From a virus, in the IMG/VR virus record IMGVR_UViG_3300045988_102542, positions 1-41,231 of that record: 41,231 nucleotides of DNA. One strand, 5' to 3'. The position numbers and the translations under genes are program-made. Position 1 is the stretch's first letter. Each line of letters begins with the position of its first letter. The notes under the pieces are model-generated. The model worked only from the letters and a program-made list of their open reading frames with translations, ran no database searches and was not told the origin of the DNA. Shown here one piece after another: positions 2,960 through 13,867 of this stretch.

Positions 2960-3157
2960 GTGAAAAAAGTGAATAAAGTAAAGTTTTATAGGGAAAAAAG
3001 GAAATGGAGTGTAAGGCAGTTAGCAGATAAAGCAGGTGTTACTCCACCGACGATATATGATATTGAATCTGAAAAACCGGCGGATATTAAATTCTCAACC
3101 ATGCTTGCAATAAGCAAGGCGTTAAACCTTACAATCGACACTCTTTTTTTACCATAA
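2960..3157 (+). CDS. Cro-like XRE-family HTH protein
   Basis: HTH WSVRQLADKAGVTPPTIYDIESEK. Track ORF starts at 2918, but GTG 2960 follows SD AAAGGAG. Divergent from the repressor. Confidence 0.8.
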   Translation: MKKVNKVKFYREKRKWSVRQLADKAGVTPPTIYDIESEKPADIKFSTMLAISKALNLTIDTLFLP

Positions 3158-11157: not shown

Positions 11158-11625
11158 ATGAACACAGTACAAATCACAGGGAATCTTGCAAAAGATCCAA
11201 TTATCAGAGCAACAAAAACAGGGAAAGCCGTAGCGTCATTTTCAGTAGGAGTAAGTAAGAGAATTACAAAAGCAAACGGGGATATATTAGACCTAACCGA
11301 TTGGATCAATGTAACTGCCTGGGGGAAACTGGCAGAAGCCGCCGGTAATGAACTCACAAAAGGAAGCTATGTATTTGTAGAAGGAAGGTATTCCACCAGG
11401 TCATATGATACGCCGGATGGACAGAGGCGGTATATTACCGAAGTAGTAGCGAATGTAATTGCAAAACCAATCGGAAGTAATCAACAATCAACGAATGCAG
11501 GCTTTTCCGGCGGAACATCTGTAACGCAATTTTCTGCACCAGTGAAATTTGAAGACATGGGCACTGTGAGCAAAGAGCCGGGATATAATCAGCCAGAGTA
11601 TGAACAAGATGAAATCCCGTTTTAA
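11158..11625 (+). CDS. ssb: Single-stranded DNA-binding protein
   Basis: OB-fold N-terminus (MNTVQITGNLAKDP..), Gly/Gln-rich linker, acidic tail ending DEIPF. Confidence 0.92.
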   Translation: MNTVQITGNLAKDPIIRATKTGKAVASFSVGVSKRITKANGDILDLTDWINVTAWGKLAEAAGNELTKGSYVFVEGRYSTRSYDTPDGQRRYITEVVANVIAKPIGSNQQSTNAGFSGGTSVTQFSAPVKFEDMGTVSKEPGYNQPEYEQDEIPF

Positions 11626-11636
11626 AGGAGGACGAA

Positions 11637-11774
11637 ATGGATAGATTAATTGACGTAGTGAGTGTAGTGATATTTATCAGCATGATCATGTATGCCGCAA
11701 TTAAACTCGACGAAGCGGCAAGAAAACTGCGCGATGAAGAAGAGCGGATTTATAAAGAAAGGAAACTGAAATGA
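11637..11774 (+). CDS. Small membrane protein (45 aa)
   Basis: ATG 11637 after SD AAAGGAGG. TM segment VVSVVIFISMIMYAAI. Stop overlaps the dut start (ATGA). Read by hand. Confidence 0.45.
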   Translation: MDRLIDVVSVVIFISMIMYAAIKLDEAARKLRDEEERIYKERKLK

Positions 11775-12208
11775 GAAGAGGTTTTGAAAAAGTAAGCGGA
11801 TATGAATATGTAAACTTTCCAAAGAGAAAGACAAAGCAATCGGCAGGATATGACATTGAAAGTGCTGTTAATGTTGTAATCAATCCGGGCGAAACAAAAT
11901 TGATTCCAACGGGGATAAAAGCATATATGGATGAAAATGAATGGCTGGGAATCTATATAAGATCAAACATTGCGGTTAAGTATGGAATTATTTTGACAAA
12001 CAGTGTAGCGGTAATTGATTCAGACTACTACAACAATCCGGACAACGAAGGACATATCATGATGGCGCTTAGAAATACGTCGGGTTCGCCTTGCGCTATA
12101 AAAGTAGGAGACAGAATCGCACAAGGAATATTCCATCAATATTACAAAATAGATGATGACAGCGCTGATGGTGATAGGACCGGCGGAATAGGGAGTACGG
12201 GGAAATAG
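11771..12208 (+). CDS. dut: dUTP diphosphatase (trimeric dUTPase)
   Basis: Motifs SAGYDI, IPTGI, IRSNI, AVIDSDYYNN, GDRIAQGIF, GGIGSTG. Confidence 0.92.
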   Translation: MRRGFEKVSGYEYVNFPKRKTKQSAGYDIESAVNVVINPGETKLIPTGIKAYMDENEWLGIYIRSNIAVKYGIILTNSVAVIDSDYYNNPDNEGHIMMALRNTSGSPCAIKVGDRIAQGIFHQYYKIDDDSADGDRTGGIGSTGK

Positions 12209-12231
12209 AGCCACATGAAAAAGAGGAAAAA

Positions 12232-12405
12232 ATGAAAAAGATAGAGATAACTTTTGACGAAAAAGGAACGCACATTAACGTCAACGGAATCGGTAAAGAT
12301 GAAATAAAAAGTGCCGCCTATGCATTACTACATAAGATGCATGAAGATTTTGACGTGTCAAACAGAGAAATAGTAGTGATTATTGATGATTTTTTTATCA
12401 AATAG
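12232..12405 (+). CDS. Hypothetical protein (57 aa)
   Basis: ATG 12232 to TAG 12403-12405, read by hand. AG-rich SD-like sequence upstream. Confidence 0.4.
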   Translation: MKKIEITFDEKGTHINVNGIGKDEIKSAAYALLHKMHEDFDVSNREIVVIIDDFFIK

Positions 12406-12415
12406 AGTACGAAAA

Positions 12416-13867
12416 ATGCAGATAACAGTGGGAAGCCTATTTGACGGAATCGGCGGATGGTGTATAGCGGCAGAACGAAACGGGGCTGTTCCCGTGTGGT
12501 CATCGGAAATAGAACCATTCTGCGTAGAAGTCACTAAAAAACACTTTCCGAACGTCATGCAATTAGGCGACATCAAAAAAATAAAAGGTGACAAAATACC
12601 ACCAGTAGACATTATATGTGCGGGCAGTCCGTGCCAGGACCTGTCAGTAGCGGGGAAAAGAGAGGGATTAAAAGGTGAACGAAGCGGATTGTTTAGAACG
12701 GCAAATGACATTGTTTCCGATATGCTCAATGCCACAAGCGGAAAATACCCCAAATATTTTATATGGGAAAACGTACTTGGAGCGTTTAGCAGCAACAAAG
12801 GGTGTGACTTTCAGGCAGTGCTTAGCGAAATCACACAAGCCGATATTCCAATGCCTCGATCTGGAAGATGGGCAAGAAGCGGAATGGTACGAAGCAAAAG
12901 ATGTCACATCGCATGGCGCGTCATTAACGCTCAATATTGGGGCGTCCCCCAACATCGCGAGAGAATCTTCCTTATTGCGTGTTTTGGAAATAGGGGGGGT
13001 AGACCGGAAGTATTATTTGAGTCCGAAAGCATGTCGGGGAATCCTGCGGAGAGCGAAAGCAAGAAAGAAACGCTTACCCGAACTGCTGTACTGGGTACTG
13101 AAACATCAGTCTATGACATCGGAAATGGACAAATAAACTCTATAAGAATGAATGAAAAAACAGGAGCGCTGAACTGCATGCATGACCAGCGATGTGTGCT
13201 TGTCAAAACATATAGAATCGGATCATACGAAAGTGAAGGAATGAAAAGCAACAATCCGACAGCGGGCATAAAAGAAGTAGACAAAAGTAACACATTAGAT
13301 CTAAGTGGAAGTAATCCGGCAAGAAACCAAGGCGGCATCTGTATAAGCGTTCTCGATATGACACATGCGCAGGACGTCATAAGAGAAAGAAATGACGGAA
13401 CAGTGCAGACACTCAATAACAGGATGGGGACCGGCGGAAATCAAGTGCCGCTCATATACACATTTAACAGAGACGCAAGTATAAAAAACAACATGCCGAT
13501 CTATGATGATAAAACATCTACATTAAAATCATCCACAAGATTAGCGGTTGTATATGCAATTGACAGGGCGGCATTTAATCAGGGCGCAAATGCAAAATAT
13601 GATTTCAAGATCAGCGATAACGGAATCAACTCAACACTGGTAGCAAGAGGACCAAGCGCCGTGGGATGTATATACAAAAACATTGATTGCTCATACGTCC
13701 GCCGCCTTACGCCGCTTGAGTGTGAAAGACTGCAGGGACTTCCGGACAACTGGACAGAAGGCGGGAGTGATACGGCGAGGTACAGAGCAATAGGAAACGG
13801 AATGGCACAGCCATGTGCTGACTATGTGATGAGTAAGGTGGTTGAAGACATTAAGGATGAGACATGA
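12416..13867 (+). CDS. dcm: DNA (cytosine-5)-methyltransferase
   Basis: ATG 12416. Motifs FDGIGG (I), GSPCQDLS (IV), ENV (VI), QHRERIF (VIII), RRLTPLECERLQGLP (IX), YRAIGNGM (X). Long variable region between VIII and IX. Confidence 0.93.
   Translation: MQITVGSLFDGIGGWCIAAERNGAVPVWSSEIEPFCVEVTKKHFPNVMQLGDIKKIKGDKIPPVDIICAGSPCQDLSVAGKREGLKGERSGLFRTANDIVSDMLNATSGKYPKYFIWENVLGAFSSNKGCDFQAVLSEITQADIPMPRSGRWARSGMVRSKRCHIAWRVINAQYWGVPQHRERIFLIACFGNRGGRPEVLFESESMSGNPAESESKKETLTRTAVLGTETSVYDIGNGQINSIRMNEKTGALNCMHDQRCVLVKTYRIGSYESEGMKSNNPTAGIKEVDKSNTLDLSGSNPARNQGGICISVLDMTHAQDVIRERNDGTVQTLNNRMGTGGNQVPLIYTFNRDASIKNNMPIYDDKTSTLKSSTRLAVVYAIDRAAFNQGANAKYDFKISDNGINSTLVARGPSAVGCIYKNIDCSYVRRLTPLECERLQGLPDNWTEGGSDTARYRAIGNGMAQPCADYVMSKVVEDIKDET

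Follow-up and report, generated by a model that had tools for sequence, protein, structure and literature searches.

The window analysed here is the whole of a viral DNA of 41,231 nucleotides (IMG/VR record IMGVR_UViG_3300045988_102542, positions 1 to 41,231 of that record), and it contains a gene, dcm, for a C5 cytosine DNA methyltransferase within which a second open reading frame (ORF) of 153 codons is read on the same strand in the +1 frame. From the sequence patterns set out below, this nested ORF is very probably a genuine second protein-coding gene. Purifying selection acts on the ORF, its start signal, and the C-terminal ~55 residues of its product throughout a very large Dcm subfamily, whose carriers are phages, prophages, integrative and conjugative elements (ICEs), and phage-plasmids. 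A preliminary description of this DNA, made from the letters of the window without database searches, had drawn attention to the ORF and offered three readings of it: a genuine overlapping gene, a frameshift isoform of the methyltransferase, or two protein families related through an evolutionary frameshift. We favor the first of these, because the +1 frame is open in distant homologues and because Dcm synonymous sites are constrained over its C-terminal module.

The +1 frame of dcm is open in the window and in distant relatives

The ORF listing contains the 153-codon frame just where the preliminary description had placed it within dcm (Table 1), and the juxtapositions of Dcm motifs with +1 peptides reported there are all present, with IWENVLG lying over YGKTYLE, YWGVPQH over IGASPNI, RIFLIACFG over ESSLLRVLE, and EVLFES over KYYLSP. 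Stop codons were compared with a null that leaves the Dcm protein unchanged but draws its synonymous codons afresh at the frequencies seen in the gene, codon context being ignored. Over 154 codons the window's +1 frame has no stops where 7.3 are expected, none of 5000 resampled sequences is stop-free, and the +2 frame, which serves as a control, contains 12 stops. The ORF is likewise open, and 81–89% identical, in every member of the window's clade that shares its tract of seven G residues (G7).

Relatives were collected through the Dcm frame only, from viral contigs by protein search and from GTDB genomes and viral contigs by Dcm alignment, with retrieval by Dcm motif patterns and the best 80 loci taken per scan. 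This yielded 183 loci with the ENV and PQxRxR anchors, of which 93 were left after dereplication at 85% nucleotide identity; 90 dereplicated loci, with 31–57% Dcm identity and related to one another, were used for stop counts. The hosts named in genome records include many Firmicutes orders, Selenomonas, Akkermansia, Arcanobacterium, and Streptococcus.

The +1 frame is open in 85 of the 90 dereplicated, distant dcm loci, with a median open length of 139 codons compared with 29 codons for the +2 frame. Across the 11,598 codons of these loci there are only 8 stops in the +1 frame, against a null mean of 281 and a null minimum of 244, and these few represent early ORF ends or come from one frameshifted locus. 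The +2 frame of the same codons has 619 stops where 712 are expected. The deficit holds for both parts of the product, with a single stop against 171 expected in the N-terminal leader and none against 99 expected in the C-terminal module. The preliminary description had considered that the +1 frame might prove closed in close homologues; it is open in close and very distant homologues alike.

The +1 start and a GAGG-like site are also held in place at Dcm synonymous sites. At the column where the ORF starts, ATG is present in 65 of 89 loci, GTG in three, and TTG in one. The frame-0 codon beneath is AAT in 57 loci, CAT in 4, GAT in 4, and GGT in 3, always followed by G, and it is never AAC, when AAT makes up only 56% of the Asn codons elsewhere in dcm genes. 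A little upstream, the conserved Dcm residues EMR are written GAA ATG AGG, with AGG as the Arg codon in 63 of 75 cases against a background of 17%, and this choice of codon gives a +1 TGA together with a Shine-Dalgarno-like GAGG(TG) positioned ~8–10 nt upstream of the ATG. The usual +1 start in the relatives is an ATG preceded by GAGG, with the Dcm ENV motif ~10 codons farther downstream. A longer form is found in the window clade and in some others, and the position equivalent to GTG 12675 is ATG or GTG in two Selenomonas loci (L047 and L122). The predicted product is 153 amino acids (aa) in the window and about 130–160 aa elsewhere.

The C-terminal module is the constrained part of the product

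The functional piece is the C-terminal ~55 residues, because it is there that both the phase of variation and the identity switch to the +1 frame; the ~90-residue leader is only kept open, and its sequence is a by-product of Dcm. Over the leader region, which spans motifs IV–VIII, the +1 identity exceeds the resampling null by no more than the +2 identity does, and there is no +1-specific amino acid conservation. Some leader residues are forced by Dcm, with ENV giving (K/R)T and WGVPQ giving G-x-(F/S/Y/C)-P in the +1 frame, and the +1 similarity at ENV is thus a by-product because codon arithmetic dictates it. In 88 of 89 loci a +1 Pro arises from the frame-0 Pro codon of motif VIII, and the third-position entropy there is 0.09 bits, the mark of a constrained synonymous site.

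From ~6 codons past the Pro of PQxRxR onward there is conservation in both frames, and from ~19 codons past it the least conserved nucleotide is no longer frame-0 position 3 but frame-0 position 1, which is the third position of the +1 codons. Beyond this point the column entropy is 0.3–1.0 bits in the +1 frame as against 2–3 bits in the Dcm linker. Family-wide, the +1 identity of the module is 0.54–0.60 compared with a null of 0.16–0.25, and Dcm identity is 0.25 between 24 and 47 codons past motif VIII. In the part of the module where the phase has switched, the +1 value is 0.54 over a null of 0.16. The Dcm linker over the module is nearly unconstrained as a protein, and appears to hitch-hike on the +1 module.

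Within the window clade (14 distinct sequences), a count of variable nucleotides at the three Dcm codon positions gives 20/9/32 over the leader and 19/8/6 past the poly-G tract, where 21 amino acid columns vary in frame 0 versus 10 in the +1 frame. The comparison of synonymous sites among dcm homologues that the preliminary description had suggested therefore comes out in favor of the ORF, since Dcm synonymous sites are constrained exactly over the +1 module. That description had also named a motif, KY(Y/F)LSxxACxGILRRAxxRGKxLP following a block N(I/F)GExPN...LSQILE, and this agrees with the consensus that we derived for the family, xGExPxxxxESxLSQILExxVPxKYYLSxxACxGILRRAxxRGKxLPxxLxxAL.

Seemingly independent homologues are nested in dcm genes

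A search of the 153-aa product against 5.8 billion proteins returned 44 matches that fall into three groups: whole-ORF calls in close relatives, chimeras of 239–242 aa with Dcm at the start and the +1 frame at the end, and seemingly independent proteins of 103–210 aa that share the C-terminal module. Five of the latter were traced to their contigs (L002–L006), and each is the +1 frame of a dcm gene, in part very distant from that of the window (31–41% Dcm identity), at loci where gene callers had split or truncated dcm. The preliminary description had placed the module in separate hypothetical or methylase-associated proteins, but every case traced to DNA, including phages P1 and Omega and the IncY plasmids as well as these five loci, is nested in the +1 frame of dcm. 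An independent protein family for the module is rejected; in the loci inspected it is one ORF travelling with one Dcm subfamily, and no inspected locus has a free-standing copy.

Two of the traced loci have stop codons in the Dcm frame. In L004 there is an in-frame TAA (658–660) within the module region and the +1 ORF is intact, and in L005, which is represented by seven contigs, a TAG (3027–3029) stands in place of the Trp codon of WENV. These are possibly pseudogenised dcm genes that keep the nested ORF or, for the TAG, an instance of stop-codon recoding.

Distribution of the nested ORF

A profile of the product retrieves 807 proteins from a word-indexed database, and an exhaustive search finds 5613 clusters (50% identity), with 4112 reaching E≤1e-10; the sole name on the profile matches is 'hypothetical protein'. 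By tblastn the ORF is present in 160 phage records and 528 plasmids, and among the matches listed the underlying feature is usually annotated as a methyltransferase gene or a hypothetical protein. The carriers include Streptococcus Javan prophages, Akkermansia phage Chantilly, Vibrio phage CP-T1, a Pseudanabaena phage, phages of Pseudomonas, Pectobacterium, Caulobacter, and Roseobacter, cluster-J-type mycobacteriophages such as Omega, and the classical phages P1 and P7 together with P1-like IncY phage-plasmids of E. coli. Throughout the loci inspected, from Firmicutes, Proteobacteria, Actinobacteria, Verrucomicrobia, and a cyanophage, the ORF is strictly tied to this Dcm subfamily.

In P1 (NC_005856, 66713–67201; L212:2301–2789) an ORF of 162 codons is open within dmt, with P=0.008 under resampling, and among the 535 features of the P1 record none but dmt is annotated at this position; the C5 activity of P1 Dmt is itself annotated there as 'perhaps'. 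The nested ORF is also open in an IncY phage-plasmid (L211:2273–2770), and it has 162–165 codons in P1 and the P1-like plasmids. In Omega (L213:1398–2702) it has 157 codons (1573–2046) within gp127 and its product starts MTFDQLDLFP; gp127 and gp128 are Dcm halves in the same frame, separated by an in-frame stop that falls after the linker and ahead of the target-recognition domain (TRD). In P1, P7, CP-T1, Omega, and hundreds of plasmids the nested ORF carries no annotation of its own. Standard annotation disallows same-strand nested genes, and because of this the gene has gone unreported in thousands of genomes. Full-text literature searches brought up no account of a nested gene within this Dcm subfamily or P1 dmt, and the accessible portion of a 2025 restriction-modification review mentions dmt for Dam methylation only.

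Poly-G tracts and frame-switch variants

The length of the window-clade G tract differs among near-identical contigs, and the coding arrangement changes with it. Contigs with G7 have an intact dcm and a 154-aa +1 ORF. Those with G8 have the Dcm N-terminal half cut at ~195–204 aa and the leader fused to the Dcm C-terminal half in a product of 388–398 aa. With G6 or G9 the Dcm N-terminal half is fused to the KYYLS tail in products of ~240 aa (P0028 and P0031, with 23 and 40 member sequences, respectively). Such variants could include sequencing errors where they occur in single contigs; large clusters share variants.

A second and independent hot spot is located at the end of the ORF, with tracts of G7 in L136, G8 in L159, L169, and L125, G9 in L182, and G10 in L069, and here a change of +1 nt places the whole nested product in frame with the TRD and motifs IX and X. 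The two hot spots, with tracts of 7–10 bases, lie ~15 and ~56–63 codons after the Pro of motif VIII and thus flank the KYYLS module. Loci with poly-G at the hot spots are the window, L001, and L024–L037; L136, L159, and L169; and L069, L102, L125, and L182. In 140 of the 183 loci the longest G run is 3–5 bases, and no single lineage has tracts at both borders of the module.

Split forms of dcm are represented by the G8 variants, L069, L207, L208, and the Omega gp127/gp128 pair. Beta-type fusions account for ~40% of the best profile matches but for fewer than 10% of the loci collected through the Dcm frame; this excess in protein databases is a bias of gene callers, for which an intact dcm conceals the ORF. 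To judge from these contigs, the variation in tract length looks like phase variation, and changes in length may provide a heritable switch, either on/off or between architectures.

Two other arrangements were seen. In Clostridium phage Saumur (L210:1171–2413, ON453901) the +1 leader (MENTQSISSGKTWQ...) forms the N-terminus of the annotated 311-aa 'DNA-cytosine methyltransferase', and from a G run upstream of motif VIII onward the protein is read in the Dcm frame; either the gene call is chimeric or there is a third hot spot for frameshifts here. Two beta-type fusions, P0182 and P0183, continue past motif X and in frame into motif I of another Dcm (…PTMASLFDGIGGFPLV…), an indication that dcm copies lie in tandem or that the gene order is permuted.

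Predicted structure and family searches

The window's +1 product was modelled with AlphaFold2 as a single chain, with 96 homologues in a shallow alignment of database proteins. The predicted local distance difference test (pLDDT) score is ~50 for residues 1–100 and 88–97 for residues ~110–148, and helices are predicted at 99–105, 117–129, and 136–148. The model thus depicts the product as a disordered leader of ~95 residues followed by a confidently predicted, basic C-terminal module of three helices. The +1 product has no match to PF00145 and no recognised methyltransferase motif. In PHROGs the only match is to phrog_16143 ('DNA methyltransferase', 139 profile positions), with E-values from 0.2 down to 1e-10, and this family is probably the same nested ORF as called in phages.

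In BFVD, the Foldseek matches were confined to frame-fused relatives and one protein of mycobacteriophage Thibault. The Thibault protein (G1FGG9, annotated at 81 aa) matches the module with a Foldseek probability of 1.00 and 36% identity over 70 columns, and lies outside the traced set.

Possible roles and alternative explanations

As a whole, the explanation that we regard as the best, and as probably correct, is a separately translated nested gene whose product acts as follows. Translation would begin at the gene's own start, which in the window is GTG 12675 behind GAGAGGGA. The nested protein may then work with its methyltransferase, with the three-helix basic module docking on the enzyme or on DNA; this is an argument by analogy to which we give somewhat less than an even chance. 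The module could replace, in trans, a segment that canonical Dcm enzymes have in frame right after motif VIII, much as the nested beta chain does in M.EcoHK31I. In some lineages an N-terminal QxxLF (QMTLF in the window) might tether the nested protein to the beta sliding clamp, a step that we consider rather unlikely on the motif evidence. Changes in the length of the G7 tract (12993–12999) re-join the frames into alternative fusion or split proteins. An extension to the whole subfamily, including P1 Dmt, as two-component enzymes is more doubtful still; in it, QxxLF on a long flexible leader would couple methylation to the clamp at the replication fork, and poly-G tracts bordering the module on both sides would switch between single-chain, split, and fused architectures.

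Besides the precedent of M.EcoHK31I, discussed below, two sets of comparisons provide leads towards a link with the enzyme or with replication. When the nested product is compared by hhalign with E. coli K-12 Dcm there is a single match, of residues 77/96–129 to Dcm residues 288/308–338, which is the segment right after motif VIII and lies past residue 283, where the frame-0 profile alignment ends. The E-value is 0.005–0.006, the score of 26.2 compares with a maximum of 20.5 among 200 shuffles, and the E. coli Dcm relatives retrieved for this profile comparison are all at least 74% identical. The preliminary description's proposal of two protein families linked by a frameshift does not stand as put, but this weak similarity keeps a version of it alive. 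The nested ORF is also found repeatedly fused in frame to the TRD with motifs IX and X.

The other lead is the motif QxxLF, which together with QL[S/D]LF constitutes a beta-clamp-binding consensus (PMC12309361). It is present in the leader of 27 of 90 lineages where 1.45 are expected (with a maximum of 5 in 300 resamples) and has no occurrence in either of the other two frames, +2 and 0; the strict form QL[SD]LF occurs 8 times against 0.015 expected. Every long-form N-terminus carries QxxLF, close to the N-terminus of the +1 product, and the leaders that have it include L002, L047, L054, L060, L061, L069, L074, L094, L108, L122, L125, L140, L141, and L145. In the window QMTLF is located in the predicted disordered terminus, with a pLDDT of ~52.

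Several observations count against the explanation that we favor. The +1 product has no matches in Pfam or NCBIfam, no PDB profile was matched at E≤10 either by the whole product or by the module on its own, and a Foldseek search of the model against the PDB gave none, so that a function can be argued for only by analogy. The hhalign probability of the E. coli Dcm match is only 6–7%, and a profile comparison with M.HhaI gave no similarity to the nested product, from which homology to that enzyme is rejected. The +1 STLSQIL block overlaps motif VIII instead of coming after it, which a simple ancestral frameshift cannot account for. The in-frame fusions are weak evidence of interaction, because indels in a dual-coded stretch yield them anyway. 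QxxLF is absent from 70% of lineages, including those with the commonest form, MxNIQDTSxGKMS. Literature searches turned up no Ribo-seq or peptide detection of the +1 product of any member, and the caveats that kinship of the loci and codon context place on the null are mitigated, but not removed, by the +2 control, the 85% dereplication, and the phase switch.

About equally likely with the partner role is that the small protein is real but has a job independent of methyltransferase catalysis, such as a DNA-binding regulator, or an anti-defence or replication-fork factor that simply travels in the dcm gene of mobile elements, and we place this too below even chances. The module is predicted to be basic and helical, and a KYYLS strand with two helices joined by the conserved RGKxLP turn makes a ribbon-helix-helix-like pattern; QxxLF is found in 30% of lineages; the host genes are apparently orphan methyltransferases in phage early or replication modules, SSB and dUTPase genes adjoining dcm in both the window and L001; and frame 0 has the full set of catalytic motifs. 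All of this would suit an independent protein, but the library, PDB, and Foldseek searches gave no match to any ribbon-helix-helix or helix-turn-helix family or structure, and the ORF is strictly tied to one Dcm subfamily across phyla, with no free-standing copy in the loci inspected. Ribbon-helix-helix identity of the module is a pattern only, supported by no tool, and we do not adopt it.

It is much less likely that there is no independent small protein at all and that the module is made only in fusion isoforms, either the Dcm N-terminal half plus module or leader plus module plus the Dcm C-terminal half, through homopolymer slippage or ribosomal frameshifting. Matching genomic variants are common (P0028 and P0031 at 240 aa, the G8 forms of 388–398 aa, P0078, P0134, and P0169), and tracts of at least seven G residues occur at both module borders; yet most lineages lack a long homopolymer, none has tracts at both borders, and fusion isoforms have no need of a conserved ATG/GTG with GAGG or of a stop-free leader running from that start. 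The conserved start and Shine-Dalgarno-like site argue against programmed ribosomal frameshifting being required or being the normal route, and the frameshift isoform raised in the preliminary description is seen only in genomic poly-G variants such as the 240-aa P0028 and P0031. Less likely again is that the ORF is the decaying relic of a split alpha/beta ancestor whose beta gene began inside alpha. Split forms are indeed present in several lineages (L069, L207, L208, and Omega gp127/gp128) and ~40% of top profile matches are beta-type fusions, but the database excess is gene-caller bias, and more than 90% of unbiased loci are single-chain and nevertheless conserve the ORF, its start, and the module sequence, where a relic would build up stops at the expected ~3 per locus. 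Least credible of all is a functionless by-product of Dcm amino acid conservation, codon usage, or an RNA structure or DNA site. Such a by-product would account for the residues forced by ENV and WGVPQ and for leader +1 and +2 frames that exceed the null equally, but resampling with the Dcm protein kept predicts 281 stops rather than 8, and the +1 conservation is strongest where Dcm is least conserved, with variation falling at +1 third positions, a protein signature. It is rejected by these synonymous resampling tests.

The host gene and its neighbours

The dcm product of the window matches PF00145 (E=4e-49), TIGR00675 (E=4e-46), and phrog_116 (E=3e-83) in Pfam, NCBIfam, and PHROGs, respectively, and its start at ATG 12416 is consistent with the homologue N-termini MQITVGSLFDG and MEITVGSLFDG. 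Frame 0 contains motifs I, IV (PC), VI (ENV), VIII (QxRxR), IX (RRLTPLECERLQGLPDNWT), and X (AIGNGMAQP), and the enzyme is a single chain in which motifs I–VIII and IX–X are not on separate polypeptides. Coordinates of the features of dcm and the nested ORF are given in Table 1.

Table 1. Coordinates of dcm, the nested ORF, and associated features in the window.
Feature	Position	Strand	Remarks
dcm, frame 0; C5 cytosine DNA methyltransferase, 483 aa, motifs I–X on one chain	12416..13867	+	ATG 12416, stop 13867; hosts the nested ORF
Shine-Dalgarno-like GAGAGGGA	12660..12667	+	GGG end 8 nt upstream of GTG 12675; read from sequence
Nested +1-frame ORF, 153 codons, GTG start	12675..13136	+	TAA 13134–13136; lies within dcm
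Leader of +1 product, residues 1–95	12675..12959	+	Stop-free; sequence mostly set by Dcm motifs IV–VIII; predicted disordered
QMTLF, residues 10–14 of +1 product	12702..12716	+	Fits beta-clamp-binding consensus QxxLF; putative binding motif
Dcm motif ENV (E118–V120)	12767..12775	+	Invariant in Dcm alignment; +1 frame forced to (K/R)(T/M)
Dcm motif VIII PQHRER (P178–R183)	12947..12964	+	Dual-coded with +1 SPNIAR; P, Q, R, R invariant
C-terminal module of +1 product, residues 96–153 (RESSLLRVLEIGGVDRKYYLSPKACRGILRRAKARKKRLPELLYWVLKHQS...)	12960..13133	+	Sequence-constrained part
G7 homopolymer	12993..12999	+	Between SLLRVLE helix and KYYLS part of module; frame-switch hot spot
Frame-0 linker, motif VIII to TRD (RPEVLFESESMSGNPAESESKKETLTRTAVLGTETS...)	13000..13135	+	Poor amino acid conservation

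Upstream of dcm (window 11158–12405) are genes for SSB, a 45-aa ORF, dUTPase, and a 57–64-aa ORF, and a similar arrangement is seen in the relative L001 (L001:1–3010), which has in addition an N6/N4 methyltransferase gene farther upstream. The SSB and dUTPase neighbours in the window and L001 place dcm within a phage early or replication module. It appears to encode an orphan methyltransferase, and there is no adjacent restriction endonuclease gene.

Relation to known systems and implications

A nested gene in a C5 methyltransferase gene is known from one enzyme, M.EcoHK31I, whose beta chain is wholly encoded in another frame of the alpha gene with its own start, both chains being needed, and carries motif IX, which is absent from alpha (PMC2836561). 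The window resembles it in having an ORF for a second polypeptide, with its own start, in another frame of a C5-methyltransferase gene, but frame 0 keeps motifs IX and X and the nested product is mostly a predicted disordered leader. The present nested protein is a different one, with a far broader distribution, its family being orders of magnitude larger. M.AquI, reportedly described by Karreman and de Waard in 1990, is said to be a naturally split C5 methyltransferase with motifs I–VIII on alpha and IX–X on beta. Some relatives of the window gene similarly exist as two ORFs cut between motif VIII and the TRD; they differ in that the fused second ORF starts ~135 codons inside the first and bears the nested product as an N-terminal extension, and the window gene itself is a single chain.

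Overlap with a functionally tied gene on the same strand also has a parallel in E. coli K-12, where vsr overlaps the 3' end of dcm, but that overlap is ~20 nt and Vsr is a known endonuclease (PF03852), whereas the window ORF lies in its entirety within the catalytic core, and its product is of no known fold. As in phase-variable methyltransferases, the window coding sequence contains a homopolymer, G7, the length of which varies among near-identical relatives and changes the frame; the difference is that the open +1 frame gives long fusion proteins rather than simple truncation, and the variation is known here from contigs only. Gene B of phiX174, which lies within gene A, is an overprinted nested gene, and viral overprinting has been reviewed (PMC8227390). 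The window ORF shares with such cases a same-strand nested arrangement, a disordered region, and constraint seen at the host gene's synonymous sites, but its conservation extends over bacterial phyla and many unrelated mobile elements, since the ORF accompanies one enzyme family and not one virus lineage.

These data place the nested ORF among the clearest examples, small viruses aside, in which purifying selection acts over a long range on two frames simultaneously. Frameshifted phage 'DNA methyltransferase' calls may be two-frame chimeras, as in Saumur, and synonymous recoding of dcm genes that contain the nested ORF is not neutral. If the nested protein is a subunit or targeting factor, the view of the activity and specificity of orphan cytosine methyltransferases in phages and ICEs would be changed, and if clamp coupling is true it would be a bacterial-virus counterpart of DNMT1–PCNA.

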